A DNA stretch of 64,000 nucleotides from a virus (taxonomy: Duplodnaviria > Caudoviricetes): positions 14,778 through 78,777 of IMG/VR virus record IMGVR_UViG_3300010151_000010. One strand, given 5' to 3'. The position numbers and the translations under genes are program-made. Positions within the stretch are counted from its first letter, which is position 1. Each line of letters begins with the position of its first letter. Positions 37,474 to 63,309 of this stretch are shown here, one piece after another. A model generated the notes under the pieces. It searched no databases. It had not been told where the DNA came from and saw only the letters and a list, made by a program, of their open reading frames with translations.

Positions 37474-37482
37474 GATTCTCTA

Positions 37483-45074: not shown

Positions 45075-45076
45075 TC

Positions 45077-45394: not shown

Positions 45395-45398
45395 TCAA

Positions 45399-45671: not shown

Positions 45672-45675
45672 TCAA

Positions 45676-47432: not shown

Positions 47433-47458
47433 TCCTCTTCATCTCCTTTATCCCTTCT

Positions 47459-47884
47459 TCATATCCGCGGACTGTAACCTAACACTTCTTCAATCAATTC
47501 TTCGTGAGTTAAGTTAATACATCTGTCAATAATTTGCTCACCCGTTGCAGGTGCAATTGATTGTCCTACAATCGCTTCCTTGAGTTCCATGTATTTCTCA
47601 CGGAACTCGGTCAGTTGCTTGACTTCTGCGTGTAGGTCTAAGCATTTACAATCTTCAAAAGCATACTCCAAGACTGAAAAAGTATTCTCCAAGACTGAAC
47701 GCAACCGCTTCACTTCTTCAAGGAGAAGTGGTGAGTCTGCTATGAGGGAAGAGTCATTACCGGAAATGTTGGTAGCCACGATTGTTTTACCCACTACAAC
47801 ATCAGTCGTGCGATAATCATTCGCTTTTGCTACAACCCTCCACGGCCCTTCCGTGTGTCCTTTGTATTTGTCTAAGTCAATCAT
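47459..47884 (-). CDS. MIDxDKY-family protein
   Basis: MIDLDKYKGHTEGPW...LIADSPLLLEEVKRLR. Confidence 0.7.
   Translation of the reverse strand: MIDLDKYKGHTEGPWRVVAKANDYRTTDVVVGKTIVATNISGNDSSLIADSPLLLEEVKRLRSVLENTFSVLEYAFEDCKCLDLHAEVKQLTEFREKYMELKEAIVGQSIAPATGEQIIDRCINLTHEELIEEVLGYSPRI
47840..47884. repeat. 45-bp exact repeat, copy 1 (copy 2 at 48466-48510)
   Basis: ccacggcccttccgtgtgtcctttgtatttgtctaagtcaatcat. Confidence 0.95.
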
Positions 47885-48144
47885 CCCGTCACCTCCACGC
47901 CATTGACGCTGAAACATTCCGTAATCTGCTCAATGGTTGGTAGGTCGTCGTCGTCGTCGCTAGAAGACCAACGTATAGCATGAATGTCCTCAATAAGTAT
48001 ATCAATATCCCCACTCTCTTGCGAACCTAACTCCCTGTAATTTGCACTAAACCAACCTATACGGCCATCACTCATAGTGAACTTGTATTGCCTGAAATAT
48101 GTGATGTCAATTATCTCATTGTACAAATCGTATTCTATTTTCAT
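47881..48144 (-). CDS. Hypothetical protein
   Basis: Coupled ORF between the two 45-bp repeats. Confidence 0.6.
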   Translation of the reverse strand: MKIEYDLYNEIIDITYFRQYKFTMSDGRIGWFSANYRELGSQESGDIDILIEDIHAIRWSSSDDDDDLPTIEQITECFSVNGVEVTG

Positions 48145-48516
48145 TCAATCACCATCTCCGTATTTGTATGGTTCATCTTCCCACCCAATATCTTCATCAA
48201 TTGCTTCATACATTTCTTTGTCATAGTGGGAAATGTAATCACCCAACCTGCACCAATCATCTTCCCACTTCTTGATTGCTTTACGCAATCGCTTGATTTC
48301 TGCAAGGAGAAGTGGTGCGTCTGCTATGAGTTTGAGGTCAGGGTTCATTGTGAGGTTAGGGTCGCCATTCGGCCTAGTTATTAACACTATGAACTCATCT
48401 CGGTCAGGGTCGTTCCGTTCATGGATAGCCGCAAGTGTCCAACCATCATCATCGGTATTGTATTCCCACGGCCCTTCCGTGTGTCCTTTGTATTTGTCTA
48501 AGTCAATCATTTTCAT
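48145..48516 (-). CDS. MIDxDKY-family protein
   Basis: MIDLDKYKGHTEGPW...LIADAPLLLAEIKRLRK. Confidence 0.7.
   Translation of the reverse strand: MKMIDLDKYKGHTEGPWEYNTDDDGWTLAAIHERNDPDRDEFIVLITRPNGDPNLTMNPDLKLIADAPLLLAEIKRLRKAIKKWEDDWCRLGDYISHYDKEMYEAIDEDIGWEDEPYKYGDGD
48466..48510. repeat. 45-bp exact repeat, copy 2
   Basis: Identical to 47840-47884. Confidence 0.95.
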
Positions 48517-49241
48517 TCCTCTTCATCTCTTGACTCTTCGCAGTAAGTTCCCCATAACCAAGGCGGAACTCTTACTTCATTGATTGAAGAGCCTACACCT
48601 ACGCCTATTTTGCCCGCATCCAAATATGCTACCATCTCTTCTCGGCTCAAGGCAATATAGCACCTTTCTTTGGCCCTAAACCGCATGAAGTATCTATCTC
48701 CCATCAGTAAGTGGTAGTCGTCGGGGTCAATCACTATCTGCTCGCCTGTGTTTGGGTTGAGTGCTTTGTAGCCCCATATTTCGATGGACTTAGTCTCGCC
48801 ATCATCGAGAAGAATCTCCCTATTTTCGATATATTCCGGCCACAGATTTTCCAGCCCCATATCCATAAGCAAAGTTCCATCCTTGTCGGCCCATCCTTTA
48901 GCGACCTCTCTCTTCATTGTGACCTCTTGGAGGTAAGCCTCTTCTGCCGTTTCCGGTAGCGGTAGTATAGCCACATCGTCATCCAATACGGTGACTCCCG
49001 CATCCCACATCAACGTCTTCATTCTATCGTGATTCTCTCTCACTTCATCGCTCTCTATCATGGATTGTAGTCGCCACTTGTTTTCTGTTTCCTTGATATA
49101 TGTCAGCCCACTTCCTTCGGGCATCCATAGACCGCCTACACTCATTTGTGCAAAGTGTTCCTTCGCCCATTCTATCAGTTCTTTCGTTGGTTTCCATTGT
49201 TCATTCATTTCATTCATCTCCTTGTAACCATCAATCCTCAA
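48513..49241 (-). CDS. Hypothetical protein
   Basis: Coupled ORF. Confidence 0.65.
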   Translation of the reverse strand: MRIDGYKEMNEMNEQWKPTKELIEWAKEHFAQMSVGGLWMPEGSGLTYIKETENKWRLQSMIESDEVRENHDRMKTLMWDAGVTVLDDDVAILPLPETAEEAYLQEVTMKREVAKGWADKDGTLLMDMGLENLWPEYIENREILLDDGETKSIEIWGYKALNPNTGEQIVIDPDDYHLLMGDRYFMRFRAKERCYIALSREEMVAYLDAGKIGVGVGSSINEVRVPPWLWGTYCEESRDEEE

Positions 49242-49552
49242 AACGACGGGTCTTGGTAATACCGCCTATGTCCTATCCCGATTCCTCCACCCGGAGAACG
49301 TAGGGGCCAGCCTTTCTGCTTGAATCTCCCTGTCTTCCGCATTGAGTAGTATACGATATTCCCTTTTGGGTTAGGGTGATACTCGTAATCGAGGTTAGGC
49401 CATTTTCCACCTATGGTTTTCGCACTATCCTCTTGGACCGCTATTGTCTTAACAAGTCCATCTGCATTGAACTCCACTTCAATGATGGTAGCGGGGTATC
49501 GGTCCGAGCCAACACACATGGTCGCGCCCATTCCTACTTCGGGGGTAATCAA
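49238..49552 (-). CDS. Conserved phage-type hypothetical protein
   Basis: P.VGMGAT...SDRYP.TI...G.R.YY.DPSF pattern. Confidence 0.65.
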   Translation of the reverse strand: MITPEVGMGATMCVGSDRYPATIIEVEFNADGLVKTIAVQEDSAKTIGGKWPNLDYEYHPNPKGNIVYYSMRKTGRFKQKGWPLRSPGGGIGIGHRRYYQDPSF

Positions 49553-51252
49553 GCGACCACCTTTTGTTCTTCTTCCACTTTCTTAATGACGGGTCGCTTG
49601 TAATTGGTTGCACACTTTTTGGTAATATATTCGATATGCTCATCATACTCTTGAGGTGTGCCAAAGAGGATTGCTTGCATTATCTCGGTAGGATTAGGTG
49701 TGTTTTCGGGGTCTATATCCATCCCCATCTCAAGGCTATGGGCGGTCCTCATGACCGTGAAGGCTTTGTCTCCATCAACCTCTTCTATGCCTGCATTTCC
49801 ATTCCATGTTCTGCCTTCTTTGTTTACAGCACCACACTTACCTGCCATCATAGAAAGGAAGTTCTTGAACTTGTAAGCCTCTTGCTTGCTCTTGAATCTA
49901 TACGGGAGTCCTTTTGAGTTCCAAGAGTTTCCACCTATGTTTACGTAGTAAGTGTAAATCTTGTCTTCGATTGCAGGCGGTGTGGTGTAAACCGACTCGT
50001 TCCCCACACCACTCTTGTGTTGTGCCTCGACATATTTTTCGTTCGCCTTACCCGGAATCCACTTGAACTTAGCAATTTCAAACCCGTAGGATTGTTTAGA
50101 ATCATACTTTGTCCATTTCCAGCCATTTACGAGGTCATGCTCTTTACGATTCTTCTTACTTGTCTGTGCTATCCAAGCCTTCAATTGAGCAAGCCACTCC
50201 CAATTCTTCCATCTATATGTGACTGTGGAGGGTAGTATTCTGCCCGAAGTTTCGCTACGTTCTCCATCTCTTGCTACGCAGTTTAAGTTCCTTGATTGCA
50301 TACGCCTCAATGATTCCTTAATGTTCTTGATAACAAACTTAGGGTCGTTCTCCCATATACTGTTGGAGAGGCTTCTCGCTACCTTATCCCATAACACGAC
50401 TCTCTTAACCGCTATTTGATTTGTTTGCCACTTTCGGGCAATCATATCGTTGTTCCATCCTCGATACACTGAACCTACACCTGCTCCCCTATCCCATAAT
50501 TTCACAAACCTGTTATCGTTGATTACACCGTTCTCGATTTGCTTGATGAGAACCCATCCGGTATATGCTGGCTGGTCGTGGTGAGCGCACAATCTTGGTT
50601 TACCCGCTTTTTCGTGGCCTTCAGGGTATACCTCTCCCTTCCATTTGCACTCTCCAAGAGTATGATTGTAATCGAAAGGTACACTCTCACAACCCCACTT
50701 AGTGCTTTTGAGTTTCTTCTCTATCTGTATTCGCAGTGGAGCGAACTTCGGACTCATCAAGATTCCGTGTGCTTGTTCAACACTGAAGTTTGGTGTTCCC
50801 CTACATACACGGAAATCCCACGACTTTTTCAGTGTCTCAAGCAATCCTATTCCGTTTTGTCTCTGGATGCGCCATTTGATGATTCCTCCATCAACGAAGG
50901 GTGTTCTCCACTTTACAAGGCGGGCATCAACCTCGTCATGCCCGCATGATTCAACTCTTGGGTCTGGCACAGTGCCATATCCAACCATCTGAGTCATCAT
51001 AGCCGCCGCCATTTTCGTGTATTGATTAACCAAATCTTCGGCTTTCAAACTCACGCCCGGCCCCTTAGATGCGAGGCTAAACGCCACTGCCGCATCCATA
51101 GGCCAACACTTACCAATCGTATCTTTCGTCTTACCAATAGTGTGTGCTATCTCAATCTTATCGTCAGTAAACATCATATCGTCACCGACGATACCTGCTT
51201 TCTCATATTTTGCCCATGTGGACCAACCTTGTCTTTCTCCGCTCATATTCAT
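49549..51252 (-). CDS. Hypothetical protein (567 aa, Trp/Lys-rich)
   Basis: Long coupled ORF. Confidence 0.7.
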   Translation of the reverse strand: MNMSGERQGWSTWAKYEKAGIVGDDMMFTDDKIEIAHTIGKTKDTIGKCWPMDAAVAFSLASKGPGVSLKAEDLVNQYTKMAAAMMTQMVGYGTVPDPRVESCGHDEVDARLVKWRTPFVDGGIIKWRIQRQNGIGLLETLKKSWDFRVCRGTPNFSVEQAHGILMSPKFAPLRIQIEKKLKSTKWGCESVPFDYNHTLGECKWKGEVYPEGHEKAGKPRLCAHHDQPAYTGWVLIKQIENGVINDNRFVKLWDRGAGVGSVYRGWNNDMIARKWQTNQIAVKRVVLWDKVARSLSNSIWENDPKFVIKNIKESLRRMQSRNLNCVARDGERSETSGRILPSTVTYRWKNWEWLAQLKAWIAQTSKKNRKEHDLVNGWKWTKYDSKQSYGFEIAKFKWIPGKANEKYVEAQHKSGVGNESVYTTPPAIEDKIYTYYVNIGGNSWNSKGLPYRFKSKQEAYKFKNFLSMMAGKCGAVNKEGRTWNGNAGIEEVDGDKAFTVMRTAHSLEMGMDIDPENTPNPTEIMQAILFGTPQEYDEHIEYITKKCATNYKRPVIKKVEEEQKVVA

Positions 51253-51800
51253 ACCTCCTTCACTTCTAGTGCAACAATCGCATTCTTCTTGATAACCTGC
51301 ACTTCGTCCTTATCTGAGGGGGTTAATGAGGTCTGCAAGACCACGATTTGTTGAATGTTTTGTGTGTCATCTCTTAGCATAGGTGATGGACCAGCCTCGT
51401 ATATGCGGTTTATTCCACCATACCCGTAATTGTATGGAACTCCCTTGTTTTCCTTCATGCTGAATGCAATAATCTCAAAGTCCTTCTCTTTCTTGCGATA
51501 CCGTTTTAGCAACAATTTAATGTCGGCGTTGAATCTTATTATAGTCCATATACCTTTGAGGTAGGTGGTGTTCGTCTCACTATCCCAATACGTCTGCGAT
51601 TCGCCTCGACAAAAATCGACGTAGTATACGCTCGGCACGTGTATCTCTCCTGTTTCCTTATTACGGATTCCATAGAATCCCACCTGTCTCCCTCCTAAAG
51701 CAGAAATCCCCTTTCTCGCATTCCTCGCATTCCTACCTGTTTGGGGCGAGTGGAAGGCAGTTCCATCAATCATTTTCATTGTTTTCGTCATATTTCTCAT
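51249..51800 (-). CDS. Hypothetical protein
   Basis: The true start is probably 51800 or 51791, downstream of promoter copy 5. Confidence 0.6.
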   Translation of the reverse strand: MRNMTKTMKMIDGTAFHSPQTGRNARNARKGISALGGRQVGFYGIRNKETGEIHVPSVYYVDFCRGESQTYWDSETNTTYLKGIWTIIRFNADIKLLLKRYRKKEKDFEIIAFSMKENKGVPYNYGYGGINRIYEAGPSPMLRDDTQNIQQIVVLQTSLTPSDKDEVQVIKKNAIVALEVKEV

Positions 51801-51808
51801 TCTCCTAT

Positions 51809-51831
51809 TACTATCTTCGTTTAAATACCAA
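51809..51831 (-). promoter_or_regulatory. 23-nt promoter element (copy 5)
   Basis: Exact copy with 38-bp extended identity (51794-51831). Confidence 0.85.
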
Positions 51832-51835
51832 ACCT

Positions 51836-52417
51836 TCATTCTAATGGTTTAACGAAGTAAATCTCCGCTCCCACTTGGGGTGTTTGTTCGGTAATCTTCA
51901 TCAGTGTCTCGACAGGCATATCTATGCACGAAGGGAGCATCATCACGTCCTCCATATCCCAAAATCCTGCTAATGCGCCATCCCACGCCGCTCTATGAAA
52001 TGCAGGCGTAGTCAGTTTTGCGTGCTTCTCTTCTAAGGTAGGTTGTCCATTCTTGTCGGTGAAGAAGACCCACACGCCTTGATTGTATACCTTCATAATG
52101 CCGGGGTCTGTTCGCATCTGTAATCCAAGTGCTGAGAAGAATGCCATAGGTAGGTCATGTATCTCCGCTAATTCTTCCCACAACATGAACATAGTCAATG
52201 GGTCCGTAAGTGTCTCAATTGGTGGCATATGTGTTATCCAACCAAAGTGCTGAAGGCGACTATCATCACACATACGCTGGAAGCGTCTAAAGGACTTACG
52301 TCTATCTGTAATCATTTTAGCAGTCTTCGGGGGTATGGGGAAGTCCTTACCTAACTCGTTGTTGAGTGTCTGCAAGGTGTCTGCAATCTTGGCTACTGTA
52401 TCATTCTCAAACTTCAT
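51836..52417 (-). CDS. Hypothetical protein
   Basis: Coupled ORF. Confidence 0.6.
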   Translation of the reverse strand: MKFENDTVAKIADTLQTLNNELGKDFPIPPKTAKMITDRRKSFRRFQRMCDDSRLQHFGWITHMPPIETLTDPLTMFMLWEELAEIHDLPMAFFSALGLQMRTDPGIMKVYNQGVWVFFTDKNGQPTLEEKHAKLTTPAFHRAAWDGALAGFWDMEDVMMLPSCIDMPVETLMKITEQTPQVGAEIYFVKPLE

Positions 52418-52656
52418 TCGTTCCCCTCCGCTTGAATTATGTTTTTCCATGCGTTCATGATTTCTTTGCGGTGAGCGTGGTTAGTATCAATCACGGTGAA
52501 TATGGTTCCATTCTTCATATGCACATCTATGTTGAAGTTCTCCCTATTAGGTAGGTGACAAACTATTGCACACACCTGCCTAAAATCAATCCATGATTCT
52601 CCACTTGAGGTATTTAAGCGATAGAGCATCCATGTCGGATAACCGGTATCGCTCAT
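52414..52656 (-). CDS. Hypothetical protein
   Basis: Coupled ORF. Confidence 0.55.
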   Translation of the reverse strand: MSDTGYPTWMLYRLNTSSGESWIDFRQVCAIVCHLPNRENFNIDVHMKNGTIFTVIDTNHAHRKEIMNAWKNIIQAEGNE

Positions 52657-53099
52657 TCCTCTTCCCCCTCTATAAATAGTCCAACATCTAGGTTAAGCGT
52701 TTCTTCCGGCACATACGGGTCAGTGTCTGTGTCTTGTATGAATCCAGCCTTCTTAGCGAAAGTCAGCACTCTCTTTACCCCCTCAGAAAGAGGGTGTAAT
52801 CCCAACATAGCACCTTGTGGGTGGTTGGCGGGCGTGCCGGGAATGAACATCTGCATCACTCCATTTGCATACCTGTATATGGTGAAAGGCGTGTATAGCA
52901 GTTCACCGGATGCCGCCGACTTGAGGACAGGAGGTTGCTCTCGCAACCACATACTGACCTCCATCGTAGTCCTCATTTTCTCCGCAATTCCATACTCTCT
53001 CCCCATTTGGGTATTCCCTGATACACCTTGTATGTGCATCAGTTCGTCGTCGTAATTGCACTTCACTTGCATTCTTTCTTCTTCCATCATTGTTTCCAT
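52653..53099 (-). CDS. Hypothetical protein
   Basis: Coupled ORF. Confidence 0.6.
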   Translation of the reverse strand: METMMEEERMQVKCNYDDELMHIQGVSGNTQMGREYGIAEKMRTTMEVSMWLREQPPVLKSAASGELLYTPFTIYRYANGVMQMFIPGTPANHPQGAMLGLHPLSEGVKRVLTFAKKAGFIQDTDTDPYVPEETLNLDVGLFIEGEEE

Positions 53100-53101
53100 T
53101 T

Positions 53102-54400
53102 TCAGTCCTCCGATTCTATTTCTTCGTTTGTTGCTCGCTCATACATGTCGTGGCCCATGAGTCTTTCAAAGTCATCTTCCACTTCGCCTCTCTTGCGCTT
53201 CTCTCTATATGCGTCGAGTTTTGTATCGTTAGGGTGGTGCTTCTTTGGCCCTCTATTTGTGTAATCATGTGGGGTATGCTTATTCTTCTTCTTGAACTTC
53301 CTCTCGGTCTTTCTCATCTGTCCGTATATTTTACTCACTGAGACGAGTTCATCCTTTTCATCAAGAGTTATCCACCATGTAGGTTGCCAAACTGTATTGA
53401 TTTTAATTTCAGTTCCGAGATGCTCGCCGTCGGCATCCTCCACATCTCTTACCTGCATGTGTCTATTCCGTGCGATTGCTTTGAGCGATATTTTATCATC
53501 ATACATTTCAATAGGATGCCACATCTGATTAGTGTGAGTGCATAGAGTGAGTTCATAACCTTCTAACAATTCTATATCTGCTTGCATGATTGCTGACGAG
53601 CCACAAGTTCGACAAGGTATGTTCATATCTTCTTCCGAGGTTCGTCTCCATTCATAGTCAAGGCAATCGTCGCACTTAGTGAGCGTCCAATTCTTCTTGA
53701 TTGGGTCATCGTAGTGTTCCCGCTTGCGCCCCTTACCTTTCTGGGGCTTCGGTTTACCCCGTCGCTTTCTTTCGTTCTCACGAATCTGAGCGTCCATTTC
53801 ATCGTCGGTCATAAGCGCAGAATCATCAAAATCCACTCCAGCCCATGTGTTTGTCTGCACCGAAGTCATCGCTTTGCCTTCAGTAAGGCCACAACAGTCT
53901 GCAACGTAGGTTTGTTGTTGCTTGGATTCGACTGCGTGTTTGCAGTATAATTCTCGGATAAACGCGATGAGTTCTGCCGCATCCTTCCACGTGTGGTCCT
54001 TTTCTGGTATCAATTTGTGCGCAAGAATAGCCAATTGAACTCCTGTCCTCCCATGTCCTCCCATGCACTGAGTGGAGATGGTGGTAATCTTCTTACTCTC
54101 TATGTCCTCCACCAACGCATCCCACCACGATGGTCCGAGGTTCTTTGGTATGCCGTAGTCGGGCCAATCAATTTCCATCACTACTGTTGGTATTTTTCCA
54201 ATGACGTTATCTGATGACTTCCATCCCTTCGGTAGCAGGTCTGCTGTTTTATTCGATGTAATCACGCCTAACGGACCCATCGCTAAATCGGGCTTGTTGG
54301 GCATTCTATGCCACCCACCTTCTCGATTTGTTCCACCTGCATATACCTTCACTGTGCCGGTGTTAAACACCAACGGATTTTTCTTATGGCAACCACTCAT
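53102..54400 (-). CDS. Cys-dependent (PTP/dual-specificity) phosphatase with a C-terminal Zn-finger extension
   Basis: WPD loop IDWPDYGIP, P-loop CMGGHGRTG (CX5R), Q loop AVESKQQ, later CDDC/CRTC. Confidence 0.9.
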   Translation of the reverse strand: MSGCHKKNPLVFNTGTVKVYAGGTNREGGWHRMPNKPDLAMGPLGVITSNKTADLLPKGWKSSDNVIGKIPTVVMEIDWPDYGIPKNLGPSWWDALVEDIESKKITTISTQCMGGHGRTGVQLAILAHKLIPEKDHTWKDAAELIAFIRELYCKHAVESKQQQTYVADCCGLTEGKAMTSVQTNTWAGVDFDDSALMTDDEMDAQIRENERKRRGKPKPQKGKGRKREHYDDPIKKNWTLTKCDDCLDYEWRRTSEEDMNIPCRTCGSSAIMQADIELLEGYELTLCTHTNQMWHPIEMYDDKISLKAIARNRHMQVRDVEDADGEHLGTEIKINTVWQPTWWITLDEKDELVSVSKIYGQMRKTERKFKKKNKHTPHDYTNRGPKKHHPNDTKLDAYREKRKRGEVEDDFERLMGHDMYERATNEEIESED

Positions 54401-56829
54401 TCTGTTTCCTCCTTCAATATCACTAATACCGCATCAGTCCATTCGGGGTTATCACCCATCTGATTCTTAGCGAACTTAGTTAGTAATTCTGAGAGCATGG
54501 GGTAGGTAGGGTCTTGATTGTTTAGTGCGTTCCATGCACCTACCCACATCTTCGGCGTCACCTCAGAATACTTCTTATCTCTCAGTAATTGAGACACTGC
54601 ATACGCATCTATACCGGATTTGTTGGTATCTGAATCAACCATGAATGCTTCGGGGAACATAGGAGTGAGAAGTATGGCGGTTGCATCCTTTCCGTATTTG
54701 AGTTTCATAACGAGAACGTCGTTATCTTTACAGTGTTTACACTCATCAATCCCACAGGGGATGAAATTGTTTGACTGAGTATATTTGTTTCCTAAGTGCA
54801 TGAGTTTAGGTCCACACTCTATGGCTGCATTTCGCAAGCCCGCCGGTATATTTGTGTCATAGGCTATGAAGTGTTGTCGCCAATAATTCGCACCCTTACC
54901 CTTGAGGAAATTGAACATAAGTAGCCAATCAGTAGGTGGAGGTGAACACTTGTCGTTTTGCGCTCCGTCCATGAATAGTCTCGCTAATTCATACGTTCGG
55001 AACATGGAACTAAGGCCGTGTGTATTGTGAGGGAATAGTCCATTCGTCTTGGGGTTGCCCTTAGAATCCTTACCCGGATGCGCACTTGAATAGTCAAATG
55101 CCCTTTGGTCGAGGAACTTCCCATAGAGGAACCCGTTGTTGTGTTCGGCATTCTTAGCGTTATTGACTACGCCCATGAGTTCTTGGAGGGATTCTTCGTC
55201 GGGTGATTTAGTGAACTCTATTACTGCGTTGCACACATTCACTCCGTGTTGAGCGCATTCACTCCATGCCTTACCACCATAAGCACCAGACCATCCTGTT
55301 TTGAAATTGACTACGCACCATTGTAGTGCAGCCTTCAATTCAAGGAAATCCACATTCATTCTCTCCATAGCCATGTAGTAGTGCTTTCTCTCGTTTCCAC
55401 TTGCTACGCCAAGTGAACCCTCTTTACCGTTGTAGTCTTCTTTAAGTTCCTTCCAATTGTGTGTGCCAACCATAGCAGTTAAGGTAGGCCACAGGTCCAC
55501 CATAGCGTTCTTCTTGAGTGACTTAGCATACCTCATTTCACCCAGACATAGTGCGAGTATACCTTTAGCCATCCAACCAACAAAACCACCGGCAAGGAAA
55601 GCACCTGCCTTCCCATTGTAATTCATACCAGCCCACTGATGGAAGAAGTGACCGAGCCAACCCTGCTGTCTTTGCCAATGAGTCTGGCTCCTACTCAATC
55701 CCGCCTTGAATGATTCCACATACTCCGGCGCACATGGGTCGTATGGTTGAGCCTCAATTGGGGTCATTCCTTCCAAGTAATATGCGCCCCAAGACGGAGA
55801 GCCTTCAACCCATATCTCTCCTTCATTTACCTCACCTACTATGTAGGGGATTCCATGTTGTCTTGCATGAGCGCAAACGTGAGACATAAGAGAGCCATCG
55901 GGGTGTGATATAACGAACCCTTCCGGCATGGTTTCCTTATTCACCTTCTCTTCTAACTCTTGCATTTCTTCTAATCCGGTAGCCACATACGCTTGCTTAA
56001 CTACGACTGTGCCGCCGGGTATAGCGACGTCCACCGTAGCGATTCTCGTGTTTCCATTAGCGTCCACGAAGGAGAACGGAGATGCTCTCGGTGCATGAGG
56101 TGGTGCGCCACGAATCTGTGTAATGTATGCTTGAGGGCCACTTGACTTTGCGACCTTGAAGTTTTCATCACGCTGATAAACAAACTCCATCTCATACTCT
56201 CCATGCTTATGGCCGATAGATGCCATGTGTTCAGTCATCAGTGTATCGTCGGGATTCAGTATGAAGTAAAGCACTCTTCCCCACCCCGCCGTGATACCGT
56301 CGTGTCCTTCGCTGATTGCTGCGTATTCCTGTGGTCCGAGAACTGAAGATGATGTAGCACTGACGAATGGTTGTAGTATCATACACCCATTGGGGTCATG
56401 CTCTAACATCTTATCACGCAAGTTTTTCCAATCTTCTCTTAGCGACTCTTCTTTTACTTGAATGGACTCAAGAACGCCATGCCTCGCAAACTCAGGACAG
56501 GCTCGCAAGAATGCTATACCTTTACCATCAAAGTCATGTGCCATGACACGCTTATACGATGCTTCGACTATATCGTAGTCATCATCCAATAGTATCACTT
56601 CAGTCATGGGGGCTTTCCACTTTGCCTTACCCTGTTTATATGATTGCACATACTTGAGGAACGACTTGGCCTTCTGAGATTTAGTCAATGCAAGACGAGC
56701 AGTTGTAACTGTTTCAGCAAGCGTCTTTCCACTCGCCTTCTCTTCTTGCACTTCGTCAGACATTTCATCCCAAATAGACGCAAACAGGTCCGTCGCATCC
56801 ATCTTTTCATACTTCTTTTCAATCGTCAT
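54397..56829 (-). CDS. PEP-synthase/PPDK-like dikinase: ATP-grasp-like domain + phospho-His swivel domain + unknown C-terminal domain
   Basis: GSLMSHVCAHARQHGIPYI matches the swivel-domain signature G..tSHaAi.ARe.GIP. Upstream FLRAC, ILQPFV..SSSV, EGHDGITAG and MEFVY..YITQIR parallel the PPDK nucleotide-binding motifs. Confidence 0.75.
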   Translation of the reverse strand: MTIEKKYEKMDATDLFASIWDEMSDEVQEEKASGKTLAETVTTARLALTKSQKAKSFLKYVQSYKQGKAKWKAPMTEVILLDDDYDIVEASYKRVMAHDFDGKGIAFLRACPEFARHGVLESIQVKEESLREDWKNLRDKMLEHDPNGCMILQPFVSATSSSVLGPQEYAAISEGHDGITAGWGRVLYFILNPDDTLMTEHMASIGHKHGEYEMEFVYQRDENFKVAKSSGPQAYITQIRGAPPHAPRASPFSFVDANGNTRIATVDVAIPGGTVVVKQAYVATGLEEMQELEEKVNKETMPEGFVISHPDGSLMSHVCAHARQHGIPYIVGEVNEGEIWVEGSPSWGAYYLEGMTPIEAQPYDPCAPEYVESFKAGLSRSQTHWQRQQGWLGHFFHQWAGMNYNGKAGAFLAGGFVGWMAKGILALCLGEMRYAKSLKKNAMVDLWPTLTAMVGTHNWKELKEDYNGKEGSLGVASGNERKHYYMAMERMNVDFLELKAALQWCVVNFKTGWSGAYGGKAWSECAQHGVNVCNAVIEFTKSPDEESLQELMGVVNNAKNAEHNNGFLYGKFLDQRAFDYSSAHPGKDSKGNPKTNGLFPHNTHGLSSMFRTYELARLFMDGAQNDKCSPPPTDWLLMFNFLKGKGANYWRQHFIAYDTNIPAGLRNAAIECGPKLMHLGNKYTQSNNFIPCGIDECKHCKDNDVLVMKLKYGKDATAILLTPMFPEAFMVDSDTNKSGIDAYAVSQLLRDKKYSEVTPKMWVGAWNALNNQDPTYPMLSELLTKFAKNQMGDNPEWTDAVLVILKEETE

Positions 56830-56854
56830 CTTTCCATCTCCACTGTTTTCACTA

Positions 56855-56877
56855 TACTATCTTCGTTTAAATACCAA
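56855..56877 (-). promoter_or_regulatory. 23-nt promoter element (copy 6)
   Basis: Exact copy directly upstream of the dikinase gene. Confidence 0.85.
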
Positions 56878-56906
56878 AGCCAATTATTCAGTTTATTTTT
56901 CAACAT

Positions 56907-57110
56907 TCATTCTTCCTCCCCTAGTCGTTTCTTTATGGCTGTCGTGCCAAAATAATAGGATTCCCCGTCTTGAAGTGTCGGAACGCTCTTTACTCTCGGC
57001 GGAGGATGTTCCGTTTCAACATCCTTAATTGGAATATCAGGGTGATTCACGCCCAACCATACCTTGAGTCCTTTGCAGGGCATACACCACGAAGCCGACC
57101 ACACAATCAT
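56907..57110 (-). CDS. Glutaredoxin/thioredoxin-like protein
   Basis: WCMPC active site and SVPTL cis-Pro motif. Confidence 0.85.
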   Translation of the reverse strand: MIVWSASWCMPCKGLKVWLGVNHPDIPIKDVETEHPPPRVKSVPTLQDGESYYFGTTAIKKRLGEEE

Positions 57111-57427
57111 TCTTCTTCACGCTCCCAATGTCCTGATTCGTATCGGACTAAGTGCATATCTTCCTCGCCTATATTCTTAACGGCCCACTCATACGCGGCG
57201 TTTTCATCTGCTTTATCTAATAGTCGCCATAGGTCTTTCACCCATGCCTCAAGTATCTCAATATCGTTCATCTGATTGATTATTTCCACCAAGTATGTAA
57301 CTACTTCACGATGTTCCTCATCGAATACTGCTATGGTTTCTGTACCTTCGTCTGTGGATTTGAATAAAGTCACCGCACCATCTAAGTCGTCTATTTGTAG
57401 TTCTTCGTATTTGTCTATGTCTATCAT
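57107..57427 (-). CDS. MIDxDKY-family protein
   Basis: MIDIDKYEEL..., C-terminal WAVKNIGEEDM. Confidence 0.65.
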   Translation of the reverse strand: MIDIDKYEELQIDDLDGAVTLFKSTDEGTETIAVFDEEHREVVTYLVEIINQMNDIEILEAWVKDLWRLLDKADENAAYEWAVKNIGEEDMHLVRYESGHWEREEE

Positions 57428-57643
57428 TCAATCATCTCCTTTTAGTATTGTTTTTATGCGGTTTAACATGCGCCACTTATCAGTTTTCTTTGTGTCAAAA
57501 TCACTTACTATCTCTTGTAGCCCTTCACGCAATCGTTTGATTTCTGCTTGTAGGTCTTTGTGTTCATTACAAACATCTTCCCAATCATGGTGATTCATCT
57601 TATACCAATCTTCAATCGTTAGTTCTTCGTATTTGTCAATCAT
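57428..57643 (-). CDS. MIDxDKY-family protein
   Basis: MIDKYEEL...LQAEIKRLR. Confidence 0.65.
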   Translation of the reverse strand: MIDKYEELTIEDWYKMNHHDWEDVCNEHKDLQAEIKRLREGLQEIVSDFDTKKTDKWRMLNRIKTILKGDD

Positions 57644-57975
57644 TCGGTTGCCTCCTGATTCCACCATATCATTTCCTGTTCGCCAATGTTATTGATTGCC
57701 CAATTGAAGCCATCATCTTCGTCCAACATAGCATGAAGTTGCTTCACCATACGTCGTGCATCAATCAGCAAGTCGAGCAGTAGTGGTGCGTCTGCCATGA
57801 GTTGTGCATCAGCGTATGTGTGTTCTCCTAACATCTTAGCAATCCTACCTTGCGCGCCGTATGGTGGGGCAACAATGTATATCCTGTAATCACCATCTTC
57901 CGTATCCGCTTCTCGTTTGTATTTCCACGGCCCTTCTGTGATTTTCGCCTTATGGTATTTGTCTATGTCAATCAT
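57640..57975 (-). CDS. MIDxDKY-family protein
   Basis: MIDIDKY..ITEGPW...LMADAPLLL...WAINNIGEQEM. Confidence 0.7.
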   Translation of the reverse strand: MIDIDKYHKAKITEGPWKYKREADTEDGDYRIYIVAPPYGAQGRIAKMLGEHTYADAQLMADAPLLLDLLIDARRMVKQLHAMLDEDDGFNWAINNIGEQEMIWWNQEATE

Positions 57976-58148
57976 TCTTCTTCTTCCTCCTTGTATTGAT
58001 GTAGTGTACCTATGTATCGTACACCATCAAGTGTCATGTCAATCATTAGAGTATCATCTTGCACTTCGCAATTACGTATGCGCCCCTTACCTATGCAGTT
58101 TGTTCTATCGCTCCACCTTGCGAAGTTAATCCATTTATCTATTTTCAT
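57972..58148 (-). CDS. Hypothetical protein (58 aa, MKIDKWINFARW...KEEEEE)
   Basis: Translated by hand, first ORF after promoter copy 7, ATGA-coupled. Confidence 0.55.
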   Translation of the reverse strand: MKIDKWINFARWSDRTNCIGKGRIRNCEVQDDTLMIDMTLDGVRYIGTLHQYKEEEEE

Positions 58149-58167
58149 ATTATTCTCATTCTCCTAT

Positions 58168-58190
58168 TACTATCTTCGTTTAAATACCAA
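58168..58190 (-). promoter_or_regulatory. 23-nt promoter element (copy 7)
   Basis: Exact copy with 38-bp extended identity (58153-58190). Confidence 0.85.
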
Positions 58191-58305
58191 AGGTTCTTCA
58201 ACACCAAAAAACGACTATCATCAAATACCATGCGCATACACAAGTATACACATAGACTACCGTAAGAGTATATGGTTATCACAACAATCACATCCGTAGT
58301 CTATA

Positions 58306-58677
58306 TCATATGGTGGCATTAACTCGATTAACCTTCTCAATATAGGCATTCGTATAACTCAAAGCATCCGCAAGCATACCCCAATAATCATACCATCCAT
58401 CGCTCATCTCGCCCACGACATTTTCATACTCAATATGCATTTCCCTTATTTCTTTCTCAAGGTATTCTTGGGCCTGTTTTACAAGTGAATACATGAAGTC
58501 CTCATTATCCATGTCGCCCAAAGCAATTCTAAAAGGTTGCTCGGAAGCCTCCTTTAGTGCCTTTTCATGCTCTTTATTTATTTCGGTTATAATTTTTCGT
58601 TGTGCGTCAAGCATATCTTTTATTAGATTAGTGACTTCTTTTTCTTTTTCCATTTTTCTCACCTTTTCTTTTTCCAT
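58306..58677 (-). CDS. Hypothetical helical protein
   Basis: ORF track. Confidence 0.6.
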   Translation of the reverse strand: MEKEKVRKMEKEKEVTNLIKDMLDAQRKIITEINKEHEKALKEASEQPFRIALGDMDNEDFMYSLVKQAQEYLEKEIREMHIEYENVVGEMSDGWYDYWGMLADALSYTNAYIEKVNRVNATI

Positions 58678-58682
58678 TCTTA

Positions 58683-58799
58683 TTATTTCATGCCCGCGAA
58701 CTTAGGCATAAGTAATCCACAGTGCTTACACTTGTTAGCACCATCAGCATATACCTCTTGATGCCACTCAGTAGGCCAACAGTCGCACAGTTTTATCAT
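58683..58799 (-). CDS. Micro zinc-binding protein (38 aa, CDC...CKHC)
   Basis: Translated by hand, ATGA overlap with the ligase stop. Confidence 0.45.
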   Translation of the reverse strand: MIKLCDCWPTEWHQEVYADGANKCKHCGLLMPKFAGMK

Positions 58800-59920
58800 T
58801 CGTAATCCCTCACAGATATGCCCACAGGGAAGCGGGGGATGCCGTCGTCAGTTAATTCTTGATACTTAACCGTGAGCATCTTATTGATGTATGAATTACC
58901 ATTGTTAAACCACACCCTTCTTTGTTCGCGTGTGCCTTTCGGTCTGACGTTGAAGGTATGGCTCGCAGTGCTGCACTTCCATATCACACAGCCTGTTTCT
59001 CCACCCTCACCTTGAGTGAATCCTACTATCCTATACTCACCATCGAGGAAGGTCTTGACCTTCTGAAGGTTGGCTGACCTCTTACCCAGCGCATACGCGC
59101 CGTGATGATTCCTAACCATAGCACCCTCGTAGCCTTCTTCGATAAACTGTTTCTGCAACCTGTATATCTCATCCTCATTGTTAGCAGTGAAGTTCTCCAC
59201 AATCTCCCAACCCTTCGGCATGGCTGTTCTGATTCGCAACACATTAGTTCCAATTATATTTTGAGATAGTATATCCTTAATCAGACAAGCACGAGTCTTG
59301 AAGGGGGTATCGGCGCGCCCCGCATCGTAACAGTCATACACTCGTAGTTTGATTTGCTTCATCCTCTCAGCATCTCCTTCCTTCAAGGTTTCACGCTTAA
59401 CCATACCAACTATCTCTTGGAAGGTCATCGTGTCTGAGTATAGTTCTCCATCAAACACTATGGGACGATTGTTAATCTTCGGCACTACTTTATGTGTGTG
59501 TCTAAGGTGATTGAGATGAGGAAACTCTTTGCCCTTACGAGAGAGCAGCCTACCATCCGGCATGGCGAAGCATCGCACACCATCGAACTTCCTCTGCACT
59601 ATGCAAGGGAAGGAGATGTTGTGACTTCTTTTCTTATATGAGTGAGCCAACATTGGTAGCATCACTACATGAGTCAAGGCTTTATCGTAGTCGTTGAGAT
59701 ACCCGTCGTCTTTCTTCTTGTTGAGTTTAGCATTCAATTGGAACTTCGCTTGCTCGCTATCACTACGCCCCTGTTTGCCTGTGCATACTACACCAACAGT
59801 GGTGGTTAGTTTACCACTGACCTGTCCACTGCGTACATAGAAGGTGTTTCCTTCAGTCCACCCCTCCCATTGTACCATCTTTCCTGTACTTCCTTTCTTG
59901 TACCATATCCCTGTGTTCAT
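58796..59920 (-). CDS. lig: ATP-dependent DNA ligase (compact viral type)
   Basis: PMLA, KFDGVRC (motif I), FDGELY, EGAMVR, LQKVK, PRFP. Confidence 0.95.
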   Translation of the reverse strand: MNTGIWYKKGSTGKMVQWEGWTEGNTFYVRSGQVSGKLTTTVGVVCTGKQGRSDSEQAKFQLNAKLNKKKDDGYLNDYDKALTHVVMLPMLAHSYKKRSHNISFPCIVQRKFDGVRCFAMPDGRLLSRKGKEFPHLNHLRHTHKVVPKINNRPIVFDGELYSDTMTFQEIVGMVKRETLKEGDAERMKQIKLRVYDCYDAGRADTPFKTRACLIKDILSQNIIGTNVLRIRTAMPKGWEIVENFTANNEDEIYRLQKQFIEEGYEGAMVRNHHGAYALGKRSANLQKVKTFLDGEYRIVGFTQGEGGETGCVIWKCSTASHTFNVRPKGTREQRRVWFNNGNSYINKMLTVKYQELTDDGIPRFPVGISVRDYE

Positions 59921-62583
59921 TCTTCTTCCTCCTTCTTGTTGTGTGTCTTTGGTTTGCTACCCATGTGTTTCAACATATCAGCAGGTATTTCTCCGGCATC
60001 AATCATCGCTTTGAGCAGGGCAATCGCAATACCTGCTCTATCTTCTCCTATATCTCCGCCGTCGAGGACAGCAGAAGTCACGCGCCTCTTGTCCTCCACT
60101 ATCGCATCGAACTTCTCGTCTATCGTGCCTATGACTGATAGGTAAATCGCCCACACTGTGTCGTTGTCCTGTCCTATCCTGTTGATTCTATCTTCGGCTT
60201 GTTCTTCCCATCCGGGAACCCACTCGCGCTCGATGAATACTACCGTGTCTGCGGCAGTGAGAGTAAGCCCCTCCTTCGCCGCTATCGTGGAGCAAAGTAA
60301 TCCATCTAACATACCTGCTTGGAACTGTTCAACATACTGTTGCCGCTTAATTGATGGCGTGCCGCCCGCTATTACTCTCCATTTCTTGTGGTTGTATCTC
60401 TTGTCGTTAGTCATCATGTCTAACAAGCCAGCCCCTACATCTTTGTGATGATAGAATATGATGATTGGCTTGTCTTCATTCTGTGCCTTGTAGTCAGCCA
60501 CCCAATCAATAGTCGCACCTACCTTGAGTGTTCCCGCATGATGACGTAAGTCAGTCAGCATATTGAGAACGAAGCCAAGAGGGATTCTCCCTTCTGCTTT
60601 GTAGTGAGCGTAGTCAGTCATCCATGTTCTATGCGCTCGCTTGTATGCAGCCATCTCTTTCTGATTAGGAACAACGGGGATAAACTGTCGCACCTTGTCT
60701 GGTAGTTCAGCCAACACTTCCTTCTTGAGCCTACGAATCATACAGTCACGTAGTTTCTCATGTAGTTCTTCGATGTTGGTTGCGCCTGTAAAATCCCATC
60801 CCCATCTATTCTGTTCAGCACCACAGTATCTCTTTGCATACTGAAAGAAGTTCCCCTTGTATTCAGCAGGTCTAATCATTTCCAGCGTAGTGAATAGTTC
60901 AACAGGTCTGTTGGTAATGGCTGTGCCGCTTAGACACAGCACCGAGTCAGCACCGTCAGCCAACGATACGCAAGCCTGTGTCCTTTGTGCCTTTGAGTTC
61001 TTGAGATAGTGTGACTCATCGAAGATGATAAGGTTGGCTCCAAGTGAGTGAAGGTTATCCTGTTGTCGCTTCGCTAAGTCGTAGTTAATGATGGTGAAGG
61101 TTGCGCATTCTATGTCCTCCTTCCCTGTCTTCACTGCTTGAACGTCCACGTGTGGAAGCCAAGTCTGTATCTCCTTGAGCCAATTGTATTTTACATTCGC
61201 AGGGCATACTATAAGGACAGGCCATAGTTCCTCATGCAGTGCAGCATAAGCGAGGGCTTGGATTGTTTTACCTACACCCATGTCGTCACCGATTAGACAA
61301 CGACCATCTGCTAACTCAGCAAAGCGCACGCCTGCATATTGGAATGGATAGAGTGTGTAGCCGGTTGGAAATATCTTAGTCAGCCTACTCTCCATCTCCT
61401 TGACTACCTTATCGTCAGTGAGTGTAGCAGCACTGCTGATTGCTATGCGTTCAGCCTTACCCTTTAGGTAGTCAGTCAGTGCATCTATCCCTTCTAATTC
61501 AGTGAGCAGGGAGGCAGGGCTGTTGCTCCATTCACTTGCTTCCTTGAGTTTCTTGATGAGGACAGTGGCCTCGCTTATTGGAACAGTCCATTGTTTCATA
61601 TCGGGAACCCACTTACGCCCGTTGAGTCCTTTGACTATATTCCTACAAGTGGTATCGTTGTAAGGTAGTTTGAGGAATAAAGCATCGCCCCTCAAACGCA
61701 CTGCATACCCACTGCTGTTAGTCTTAGGTTCAGTAGTCTTGATTGATGCACCGACGGCATCGAGTTTGCTTGTGTCGTAGCCATACTTGGATAGTATAGA
61801 AGATACTTTCTCGATAACCATGCTGTCGAGTGAGCAAGACATGGTATAGTCTTGATACTTGAACGAAGGAAAAGGCACTGCCCCCTTGAGGTCATAGTAT
61901 AATTGGGTGTTGCGCCCCTTCCATACAAGTTTCAATCTCTTACTCTTACGTGGGTATCTTTGTTGGTAGTCATTCTTACTATACCACACCTCATCGTATT
62001 CCTCCACGTCAAGAGAGAAGCGTGACTTGTAGTTTTCTAATTTACTCAACCCACTCTCGTTAGCACCATCCACTAACTCATTGACTGACGCTACATCTAT
62101 ACCCATGTCTAAGAGTTCATTCTTCAAGGACTTCAGTTCGCTATCAGATAGAGGTGTGAAGTATGACTCGCAACCCTTCTGGGTAATGAGGTCATCCACA
62201 TAACCACTCACCTTCCGCTTACCCTTGTTTAGTTTCTTTGCATACTCTCGCTCTATCCTCTCACGCTCAAGCCTCTTCTCTTTCGCTTCCTCACCTATCT
62301 GATGTAGTCCATCTAATGCTCTCCCCCAATCAGTAGTGGGTGCGTAGCCCGCTATCTCCATAATCTCAGGCAATTGAGTGCCGATGTATTTGCGGAAGCG
62401 TTGGCTCATCTCGATGTAGTCTTCCTCATCCATCTCATCCTTAGCAGCCACTCGCTTGAAGAAGGGAGCGTCCGGTGCGTTAGGCCCAATGTCATCCTTG
62501 ATGTGAATGCTATTCACTTCGTGATGGATAGACACGAACGCCTTTACCATCCTCATCATGTCGTCTTTGTTTGGTGTAATCAT
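59917..62583 (-). CDS. SNF2-family helicase, SMARCAL1/HARP-like
   Basis: DDMGVGKT, DESH, LSGT, EGLTLTAA, QAEDRINRIGQ, and HARP-like 'LPYN...KGLNGRKW....WTVP'. Confidence 0.9.
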   Translation of the reverse strand: MITPNKDDMMRMVKAFVSIHHEVNSIHIKDDIGPNAPDAPFFKRVAAKDEMDEEDYIEMSQRFRKYIGTQLPEIMEIAGYAPTTDWGRALDGLHQIGEEAKEKRLERERIEREYAKKLNKGKRKVSGYVDDLITQKGCESYFTPLSDSELKSLKNELLDMGIDVASVNELVDGANESGLSKLENYKSRFSLDVEEYDEVWYSKNDYQQRYPRKSKRLKLVWKGRNTQLYYDLKGAVPFPSFKYQDYTMSCSLDSMVIEKVSSILSKYGYDTSKLDAVGASIKTTEPKTNSSGYAVRLRGDALFLKLPYNDTTCRNIVKGLNGRKWVPDMKQWTVPISEATVLIKKLKEASEWSNSPASLLTELEGIDALTDYLKGKAERIAISSAATLTDDKVVKEMESRLTKIFPTGYTLYPFQYAGVRFAELADGRCLIGDDMGVGKTIQALAYAALHEELWPVLIVCPANVKYNWLKEIQTWLPHVDVQAVKTGKEDIECATFTIINYDLAKRQQDNLHSLGANLIIFDESHYLKNSKAQRTQACVSLADGADSVLCLSGTAITNRPVELFTTLEMIRPAEYKGNFFQYAKRYCGAEQNRWGWDFTGATNIEELHEKLRDCMIRRLKKEVLAELPDKVRQFIPVVPNQKEMAAYKRAHRTWMTDYAHYKAEGRIPLGFVLNMLTDLRHHAGTLKVGATIDWVADYKAQNEDKPIIIFYHHKDVGAGLLDMMTNDKRYNHKKWRVIAGGTPSIKRQQYVEQFQAGMLDGLLCSTIAAKEGLTLTAADTVVFIEREWVPGWEEQAEDRINRIGQDNDTVWAIYLSVIGTIDEKFDAIVEDKRRVTSAVLDGGDIGEDRAGIAIALLKAMIDAGEIPADMLKHMGSKPKTHNKKEEEE

Positions 62584-62852
62584 TCTTCTTCATCTCCTAT
62601 TTCCCACGCCATCAAGCAGTTAGAACTCGATTCCCATCCATGTGTAGCCACTTGGTAATAGTGATGTAGTTCCTTAGCAAACACATCAGTCGCTTGCTCA
62701 TAAATCTCCATCGCTTCTTCAAGTGTATCTATATTGTATGCCTCATCCATAGCGCCGAGTGATTCGCTTTCATCCCATGCGGCTTGGTCTTCGGGTGCAT
62801 ACCACACTAACACAGCATACTCTGTTGCTTTCTCAGGTAGTGGGTCACTCAT
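62580..62852 (-). CDS. Acidic hypothetical protein
   Basis: Coupled ORF. Confidence 0.6.
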   Translation of the reverse strand: MSDPLPEKATEYAVLVWYAPEDQAAWDESESLGAMDEAYNIDTLEEAMEIYEQATDVFAKELHHYYQVATHGWESSSNCLMAWEIGDEEE

Positions 62853-63025
62853 TCTTCCTCGCCTCCTATCATCGTAGGTAAATCAATCCAGCCCCATCCT
62901 GAACGCCCACATTTACTACACGTAATCGTTATTTGGAACTGTTCGTATGGTTCATCCCAAAACATATCACTCATCTCCCAATGGTGGTCTTTGATACTCA
63001 CTACCTCAGTTCTGCAATCGCTCAT
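62849..63025 (-). CDS. Small protein (58 aa, CSKC)
   Basis: Translated by hand, coupled at both ends, GEEE end. Confidence 0.5.
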   Translation of the reverse strand: MSDCRTEVVSIKDHHWEMSDMFWDEPYEQFQITITCSKCGRSGWGWIDLPTMIGGEEE

Positions 63026-63303
63026 ACATACACCTCATCAATCAGCCACTCACCATCTTCAGGAGTGAGTGTGCCTTCACGAGTCAAGTGCATAACCATC
63101 CTTGCGCCTGCCCTTGCCTCCATCACTTGCCTTCGTAGCCCATCTATTTCCTCGCATAACCTTATGACTTCTCTCTCATGTTCTTCTTTGTAATCATCAA
63201 TGCGCGTCGCGGCTACCTCCAGCCTAAGCCTAAGCGCGCTGTTCTCTTTCTTCAATCTCCAATATCCATGCTTCCATTTGTTGTGTTCATCTGTTTCATT
63301 CAT
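63022..63303 (-). CDS. Coiled-coil hypothetical protein
   Basis: ORF track. Confidence 0.55.
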   Translation of the reverse strand: MNETDEHNKWKHGYWRLKKENSALRLRLEVAATRIDDYKEEHEREVIRLCEEIDGLRRQVMEARAGARMVMHLTREGTLTPEDGEWLIDEVYV

Positions 63304-63309
63304 TCTTCC

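Follow-up and report, generated by a model that had tools for sequence, protein, structure and literature searches.

What two overlapping genes do for the virus that carries them is the question raised by a locus at positions 53,102 to 57,110 of a 64,000-nucleotide stretch of viral DNA (the whole stretch analysed, hereafter the window), which spans positions 14,778 to 78,777 of the IMG/VR record IMGVR_UViG_3300010151_000010. The first gene encodes an 810-amino acid (aa) protein with a phospho-histidine swivel motif and the second a 432-aa cysteine phosphatase. The two very probably constitute a real functional pair of dikinase and phosphatase, and this pair probably acts on a shared substrate of a universal kind. 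That the genes make up one virus-specific, self-contained enzyme pair working in the manner proposed below is a tentative reading, which we put somewhat short of probable. The features on which the argument depends are the following.

54397..56829, minus strand: gene for the 810-aa His-swivel dikinase-like protein, recognised from its open reading frame (ORF), its homologues and an AlphaFold2 model
56095..56712, minus strand: ATP-grasp nucleotide-binding domain of this protein (residues ~40-245), with K53 near-invariant and R109, R116, E215, Q238 and R240 invariant or nearly so
55765..56082, minus strand: phospho-His swivel domain (residues ~250-355), with the proposed catalytic His317 at codon 55879-55881
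54400..55749, minus strand: all-helical C-terminal acceptor domain (residues 361-810), in two parts, 365-585 conserved and 585-810 lineage-specific
53102-54400, minus strand: ORF of the 432-aa phosphatase, with a 4-nucleotide (nt) ATGA overlap with the dikinase gene at 54397-54400
53876..54400, minus strand: Cys-phosphatase domain of the protein tyrosine phosphatase (PTP) fold, with C4/H5, WPD at 79-81, C112x5R118, C153, E158 and Q162
53102..53875, minus strand: C-terminal extension of the phosphatase, with CxxC...CxxC zinc-ribbon-like motifs and Lys/Arg-rich tails

The 810-aa protein is a very diverged branch of the His-swivel dikinase superfamily, as its structure and a broad profile place it there whereas Pfam and narrower profiles fail to do so. 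An AlphaFold2 model built with 61 sequences (pLDDT 88.6, pTM 0.82) was used as a query in Foldseek, and the full model retrieved pyruvate phosphate dikinase (PPDK, 1dik) as the top match (E 1.7e-4), followed by rifampin phosphotransferase (RPH) and many ATP-grasp enzymes. The ATP-grasp fold was closest to those of RPH, PPDK and HpeI, and the swivel region was modelled as beta strands with a helix beginning at residue 317. Two family profiles were compared by hhalign with phosphoenolpyruvate (PEP) synthase (PpsA) and PPDK, one from a narrower alignment (A1) and one from a broader alignment cut to residues 95-350 (A2), and significance was reached with A2 only. A2 was collinear with 13 PpsA sequences over 225 columns (P 3.9e-5, probability 70.6%) and with 15 PPDK sequences (P 7.1e-4). 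In both, the ExE...QxR metal/phosphate motif coincides with E213/E215 and Q238/R240, which pair with DIEW...QARP of PpsA and DIEF...QTR of PPDK, and the catalytic His coincides with His317, whose surroundings pair with the GGRTCH motif of E. coli PpsA and of the 13 PpsA and 15 PPDK sequences.

Conservation points to the same residues. All 86 near-full-length homologues collected were without Pfam annotation, and an exhaustive search extended the family to 818 representative clusters (E<=1e-3), which have residues ~100-585 in common. R109, P112, G118, T180, R240, H317, E431 and R433 are invariant in 133 diverse members, and K53, E215, Q238, R481, W513, G518, G519, N556, H563, N564, G566 and K571 are among the near-invariant residues; His317 is likewise invariant in 61 close relatives. 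The swivel signature, GSLMSHVCAHARQHGIPYI, occupies residues 312-330 (55840-55896). No PHROG matched the dikinase, and NCBIfam and PADLOC gave nothing useful. Fused parts of the phosphatase, or of the 148-aa protein encoded next to it (see below), were not found by phmmer in 230 collected family proteins, and eight long members had no informative additional Pfam domain, one of them carrying a hexapeptide-repeat N-terminus.

In its model, the C-terminal region (pLDDT 91.2) consists of 24 helices together with two short strands. Its first part (residues ~365-585) is conserved throughout the superfamily, with E431, R433, R481, W513, G518, G519, N556, H563, N564, G566 and K571, and includes GWSGAYGGKAW (512-522) and EHNNG (562-566), whereas residues 585-810 are lineage-specific and carry H678/C692/C697/C700. 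Neither a TIM barrel nor any solved relative of the domain was found among the structural matches of the C-terminal model, the rifampin-binding domain of RPH was not in the top 50 of these matches, and Pfam PEP-utilizers_C is absent from the 810-aa protein. As the C-terminus is all-helical and without a barrel match, it is not a PEP/pyruvate-binding barrel. The idea that it might be a DNA-base pyrophosphorylase of the aGPT-Pplase type was dropped, as no Pfam match supported it. A sequence-only reading of the locus had proposed, from the ORFs and their motifs, a dikinase-type ATP-grasp N-terminus, a phospho-His swivel, a C-terminus other than the pyruvate barrel and an ATGA overlap with the next gene. 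The ORFs, motifs and overlap are all present where they had been placed, and the three domain assignments are upheld by the structural model, by the collinear alignment to PpsA and PPDK and by the invariance of His317.

The 432-aa protein is predicted to be a Cys phosphatase of the PTP-SAK type with all its catalytic residues in place. Its motifs are WPD (79-81), C112-MGGHG-R118 and ESKQQQ (158-163); we take the first to be the general-acid Asp loop and the last to hold the Q-loop Gln. D81, C112, R118, E158 and Q162 were each found in 52/52 diverse phosphatases, W79 in 43 of them, and the N-terminal Cys4 and C153 in 48 each, so that the CX5R phosphatase with WPD and Q loops previously read in this frame has its catalytic residues in every homologue compared. 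The window protein itself matched PTP-SAK (E 0.0019, 18.7 bits, cut-off 27) and Y_phosphatase (E 0.0034, 17.5 bits, cut-off 20.9) below threshold, and its sequence matches in the Protein Data Bank (PDB) were classical PTPs, both receptor and non-receptor (best E 0.008). Among 49 partner phosphatases from diverse loci, 43 matched PTP-SAK at E<=1e-3, and 24 of the 49 scored above its cut-off. In the Pfam description, PTP-SAK belongs to RNA-repair proteins of the 'Swiss Army Knife' kind, in which it is the phosphatase domain. Homologues differ in their C-terminal 250 residues: two or more CxxC motifs occur in 25/27 magrovirus-like versus 17/51 diverse partner phosphatases, and a K/R-rich window in 24/27 versus 18/51. 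Judging from their sequence, the zinc-ribbon-like and basic tails may bind nucleic acid. The phosphatase also matches phrog_17568, labelled 'thymidylate synthase' (E 3.9e-13), a label that looks like an annotation slip, although a tie to nucleotide metabolism is possible.

That the two genes would be linked in other viruses had been suggested from this single locus, and the linkage proved near-universal. A close alignment yielded 36 viral loci, several of them near-duplicates, and in 34 of these the dikinase gene is immediately followed, on the same strand, by the gene for a phosphatase homologue. An alignment of distant members yielded 75 further loci, 16 of which are again magrovirus-like; a hidden Markov model of the phosphatase domain detected an adjacent same-strand phosphatase in 73. 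The two misses of the first set are at a contig edge and those of the second at contig ends. A 4-nt overlap between stop and start codons is present in 18/34 pairs. Gene order could be established for 53 pairs, of which 50 have the phosphatase downstream of the dikinase and 3 have it upstream. When the 652 ORFs of 59 non-magrovirus loci were clustered all against all, the dikinase was recovered in 56 loci and the phosphatase in 55, and no third gene family in more than 5.

The carriers include a 41-kb podovirus, a 448-kb contig, contigs bearing sigma-70 genes, which are therefore taken as bacteriophages, and the present archaeal-type virus; the close relatives of the locus lie on IMG/VR contigs of 35-115 kb. 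The dikinase branch was found in 110 IMG/VR contig loci, whereas a scan of 185,579 prokaryote genomes gave a single locus, on a 30-kb contig of a metagenome-assembled genome. A tblastn search of 50,697 phage records with three family members as queries retrieved four metagenomic podovirus genomes, nearly identical to one another, and nothing else.

Cultured phages contain a sister version of the pair. Stenotrophomonas phage DLP5 (MG189906) encodes a 645-aa 'pyruvate phosphate dikinase' (positions 35584-37521 of its locus, L156) with PPDK_N (1.6e-43) and PEP-utilizers (7.9e-25); a Pfam scan found no barrel domain in it, and ~195 C-terminal residues are unexplained. Four genes downstream, with three small genes between, is the gene for a phosphatase of 156 aa that belongs to the subfamily of the window protein (probability 97.6%, E 3.7e-12). 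The DLP5 dikinase is a canonical PPDK_N and PEP-utilizers protein, unlike the viral branch, which it matches only at the His motif (P 0.005). As the dikinases differ and the phosphatase is the same, one phosphatase subfamily accompanies two different lineages of barrel-less dikinases. Vibrio phage vB_VneS_J26, as far as the available text of its description goes, has a similar arrangement, a barrel-less swivel dikinase near a phosphatase of this subfamily, and there the 'PPDK' (ORF98) and the PTP (ORF100) are treated as separate metabolic genes (PMC12038007). Both the PPDK label in DLP5 and the carbon-metabolism reading of such vibriophage genes are probably wrong. The best match in the BFVD database, gp139 of Bacillus phage G (E 2.2e-6), was rejected as a family member, as it matches at the His motif only. 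The homologous phosphatase of DLP5 lies one gene from thyX (L156, 38683-40996).

We infer the chemistry, the substrate and the biological role of the pair from these folds, motifs, conservation and linkage. If the viral dikinase works like PPDK, PEP synthase and RPH, its ATP-grasp domain would bind ATP; His317 on the mobile domain would accept the beta-phosphate, AMP would be released and the gamma-phosphate would go to water or inorganic phosphate. The swivel domain would then swing to the all-helical C-terminal domain, in which an anionic acceptor, held by E431, R433, R481, H563, N564 and K571, would receive the phosphate on one of its hydroxyls. The phosphatase, made by coupled translation, would work on the same molecule. 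With low confidence, we propose that one phosphate is added at one position and another removed elsewhere, as in polynucleotide kinase-phosphatase, rather than a single one being toggled.

The substrate must be universal because the pair occurs in a podovirus, in sigma-70-bearing phage contigs and in an archaeal-type virus. The likeliest candidate is the broken end of RNA or DNA made by host nucleases, re-formatted so that a ligase can reseal it. Taken specifically, the healing of nucleic-acid ends is a possibility that we still consider rather unlikely. A shade more doubtful is the full proposal of a new end-processing system, in which the first polynucleotide dikinase, with its phospho-His swivel and a novel acceptor domain made of helices, and a Cys phosphatase coupled to it would re-format RNA/DNA ends cut by host immune nucleases, for resealing by a viral or host ligase, in archaeal and bacterial viruses alike. 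The affinity of the partner phosphatases for PTP-SAK and their basic and zinc-ribbon tails are consistent with such a role, and so are several neighbours. A T4-type RNA ligase gene overlaps the start of the dikinase gene in one locus (L129), and other RNA-related neighbours are HAD_SAK_2 (L123), RapZ_C (L103 and L130) and PTH2 (L119). An Rnl2-type ligase is encoded in 11/49 module-bearing records, and in the window an ATP-dependent DNA ligase gene lies 2 kb upstream of the pair.

A functional parallel is offered by Pnkp (T4 Pnkp and bacterial Pnkp/Hen1), in which a kinase and a phosphatase are obligately paired and heal broken nucleic-acid ends. Each partner of such an always-paired enzyme works at its own position on a common substrate. 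The likeness is a functional analogy only, as Pnkp combines a P-loop kinase with a HAD or metallophosphoesterase phosphatase and the viral pair an ATP-grasp dikinase with a Cys-based phosphatase. Moreover, Pnkp systems work with a ligase, which is usually absent from the carriers of the viral pair.

A number of results weigh against this proposal, at the level of the enzyme as well as of its role. Pfam PPDK_N (PF01326) is absent from the window protein and from all of 73 distant relatives; PEP-utilizers (PF00391) reached residues 311-332 of the window protein at 13.5 bits only (E 0.057, cut-off 23.1), and was likewise sub-threshold in 4/73 distant relatives. Sequence searches against solved structures returned nothing, either with the single 810-aa protein or with A1, and hhalign of A1 was not significant against E. 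coli PpsA (P 0.074) or against the PpsA and PPDK alignments (P 0.04-0.46). The RNA-related neighbours occur in only ~5/59 diverse loci, a count made without a control set for enrichment. Among 21 records at least 90% complete, 17 have no Rnl2-type ligase and none has Rnl1, and the record from which the window comes encodes neither Rnl1 nor Rnl2 nor RtcB. We know of no polynucleotide dikinase, and the nearest characterised dikinases act on small molecules. In an ESM feature search with residues 365-810, Rph_4th clusters came first (0.87), which is a lead only; the RPH domain binds a small molecule. An alignment against five poorly bounded genomic regions taken as RPH-like was not significant (P 0.11-0.22) and speaks neither for nor against a relation.

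The small-molecule substrates of the nearest dikinases and the ESM lead bear on the alternative that survives best, which is itself unlikely: a small-molecule or nucleotide pathway, in which the helical domain would bind a metabolite, a nucleotide or an immune signal, the dikinase would phosphorylate it and the phosphatase would trim another phosphate or finish the route. Parallels exist in RPH-like and two-component dikinases and in kinase-then-phosphatase routes such as the Cre pathway. A self-contained two-gene module would suit a universal metabolite, and the ATP-grasp fold is closest to RPH and HpeI, both small-molecule dikinases. In addition, E431-x-R433 resembles the Arg666/Glu667 pair of RPH, which positions the phospho-His according to the available text of that study (PMC4844700). 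The domain order of RPH-Lm (PDB 5HV1/5FBS) is ATP-grasp, acceptor, His, whereas that of the viral protein is ATP-grasp, His, acceptor. Further, the viral acceptor domain has no detectable structural match to the RIF-binding (rifampin-binding) domain of RPH, and the viral dikinase, unlike RPH, is always paired with a Cys phosphatase. The link of PTP-SAK-type phosphatases to RNA repair in the Pfam description also speaks against a metabolite, for which the basic and zinc-ribbon tails would be odd and no candidate ligand is at hand.

Less likely again is the writer/eraser switch put forward in the sequence-only reading, in which the dikinase would phosphorylate a host or viral macromolecule (protein, glycan or lipid) and the phosphatase would reverse this. 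Its model is glucan water dikinase with SEX4/laforin, where the product of a His-swivel dikinase meets a Cys phosphatase as it would in the viral pair. Both activities are predicted and always co-inherited, the phosphatase has WPD and Q loops like those of classical pTyr phosphatases, with receptor and non-receptor PTPs as its best PDB matches, and the 148-aa protein, with Ser61 and Tyr69 invariant in the magrovirus-like subset, could be a protein substrate. However, SEX4/laforin-type enzymes are separately regulated plant and animal proteins, unlike the products of a coupled two-gene viral operon. Overlapping, co-translated genes cannot separate writing from erasing, and a timed switch is disfavoured because coupled expression of both activities on the same phosphate would burn ATP futilely, with net ATP hydrolysis as the result. 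By Pfam the pair has no carbohydrate-binding or protein-interaction domain; no carbohydrate-binding module family was found in scans of the window proteins and 57 relatives, although a diverged module could escape them. Apart from weak matches, the diverse loci have no counterpart of the 148-aa gene, and no regulator recurs beside the pair.

Improbable, too, is a two-subunit enzyme in which the phosphatase-fold protein would act on the dikinase itself, either resetting phospho-His317 or serving as a second carrier in a His to Cys relay comparable to sugar phosphotransferase systems. Strict adjacency and coupled translation agree with it, and the recurrence of the phosphatase subfamily beside quite another dikinase lineage in DLP5 would be expected of a partner recognising the swivel domain that both lineages have. 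The relay version is weakened by the invariance of the Q-loop Gln and the general-acid Asp: both residues favour hydrolysis of a Cys-phosphate, so that the protein is read as a genuine hydrolase and not as a carrier.

An ordinary auxiliary metabolic gene, that is a PEP synthase or PPDK boosting host carbon metabolism, is very improbable: cultured-phage relatives of the general class are labelled 'pyruvate phosphate dikinase' (DLP5; phage G gp139; J26, in the available text of PMC12038007), but the C-terminal 450 residues are helical with few short strands and match neither a TIM barrel nor PEP-utilizers_C, and the DLP5 protein has no barrel domain either. PPDK and PEP synthase (1DIK; E. coli PpsA) share with the viral protein the order of their first two domains and the aligned ExE...QxR and G-x-x-x-S/C-H motifs, whereas they use a TIM barrel for PEP/pyruvate, which the viral protein, too diverged for PPDK_N, does not have.

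His-swivel dikinases with swapped acceptor domains form a known but largely unexplored class. What is new here is a large virus-only branch with an acceptor domain that has no relative among solved structures, the essentially constant pairing of this branch with one subfamily of Cys phosphatase, and the span of the pairing over archaeal and bacterial viruses, with its recurrence beside a second dikinase lineage in cultured phages, where the genes are now labelled as unrelated carbon-metabolism and signalling genes. The pair thus points to an undescribed phosphate-transfer system. A published description of the branch, the acceptor domain or the phosphatase pairing was not found in the literature on phage dikinases, anti-defense and SAK RNA repair, and the main text of two magrovirus papers mentions neither the dikinase nor this phosphatase. 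For a two-gene module so conserved and portable, a role in some general step of infection or counter-defence is probable. Identification of the substrate would establish a new viral phosphotransfer reaction and put right the 'PPDK' annotations of phage genomes, and the sister version in DLP5 and J26-like vibriophages is open to direct experiment.

The expression and the immediate neighbours of the pair involve the following additional features.

26719, 37476, 39817, 42761, 51802, 56848 and 58161, all minus strand: copies of a promoter-like repeat, with core TTTGGTATTTAAACGAAGATAGTA and TTTAAA box
56848..56885, minus strand: the copy before the dikinase gene, with the same core and TTTAAA box; its end lies 19 nt before the ATG of the dikinase gene
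52653..53099, minus strand: 148-aa gene (orf148), third of the magrovirus-like module, with invariant Q11, H22, Q24, R34, Y36, G37, S61, Y69, G88 and G96
51836..52656, minus strand: two small ORFs of 80 aa and 204 aa (orf80 and orf204), before the promoter-like copy at 51802-51839; homologues are often, not always, nearby
56907-57110, minus strand: 67-aa ORF with WCMPC, from the ORF list

A 23-nt motif had been described as a promoter copy directly upstream of the 810-aa gene, and its place and its repetition were borne out: it has 6 matches in the window at <=3 mismatches versus 0 expected from 100 shuffles. Extended to 38 nt, the element has seven copies with an invariant core, each of them preceding genes. 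Taken together, the invariance of His317, the presence of the phosphatase catalytic residues in 52/52 homologues and this excess of six matches over none argue that the motifs of the locus are not due to chance. The 38-nt element is a putative promoter, and a TTTAAA box is what is expected of an archaeal TATA-type promoter. It appears to split the replication block of the window into units. As copies are found at 56848-56885 and, past the dikinase unit, next at 51802-51839, the transcription unit is likely to comprise the dikinase gene, the phosphatase gene, orf148, orf80 and orf204; the 80-aa and 204-aa ORFs probably belong to it, and are candidates only for a place in the functional module. 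Contigs from the RNA libraries of two studies match 52054-53257 and 55630-55928 with 95-99% identity, which indicates presence in RNA libraries, without proving transcription itself or giving start sites.

The 67-aa CMPC gene had been proposed as a glutaredoxin partner of the pair, and this proposal was not supported. It lies upstream of the copy at 56848-56885, in the unit headed by 58161-58198, and is therefore not under the dikinase promoter. No homologue was found beside the module in any of the 36 related viral loci, the 67-aa query being a weak one, and although the motif is present in the protein, its Pfam matches are sub-threshold. By comparison, an orf148 homologue follows the phosphatase gene in 33/36 loci. 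N92 and H93 of its product are nearly invariant, and the protein had no match in Pfam, PHROG or PADLOC; beyond the magrovirus-like subset there were at most weak matches, in 3 loci (E 2e-5 to 1e-12). The protein may serve as a third enzyme or as a substrate.

The source of the window is a 78.8-kb linear virus record with a completeness of 87% (CheckV). Its minus-strand block encodes a family-B DNA polymerase, an RFC-like clamp loader, a primase-like protein, PD-(D/E)XK and ERCC4/XPF nucleases, a thermosome-type chaperonin, a SNF2 helicase and the ATP-dependent DNA ligase, a gene set that we take to be that of the magroviruses. Magroviruses are viruses assigned to marine group II archaea. The virus-encoded chaperonin is at 22515-24047 (minus strand; Cpn60_TCP1, E 9.6e-116), and the ERCC4/XPF nuclease, at 26750-27454 (minus strand), has helix-hairpin-helix motifs. 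On the plus strand, a giant frame of at least 3362 aa (2-10090), open at the window start, has no PHROG match and only a sub-threshold Pfam match, and is followed by large ORFs of 811, 1169 and 913 aa. As the 913-aa ORF matches tail-spike or virion-protein PHROGs, the giant frame and these ORFs are probably a structural block.

Small paralogous ORFs starting with MIDIDKY... are spread across 44893-63314 (for example 57107-57427, 57428-57667 and 57640-57975) and carry repeats D2, D4 and D5, with 4 to 8 copies. Many proteins of the window end in runs of Glu (…EEE), as at the gene ends at 52653, 56907, 57107, 57972 and 59917. Repeats D10, D15 and D16 are, on the coding strand, GAGGAAGAATGA-like stop/start junctions, and ribosome-binding sequences placed inside the upstream gene may give rise to the acidic tails as a side effect.

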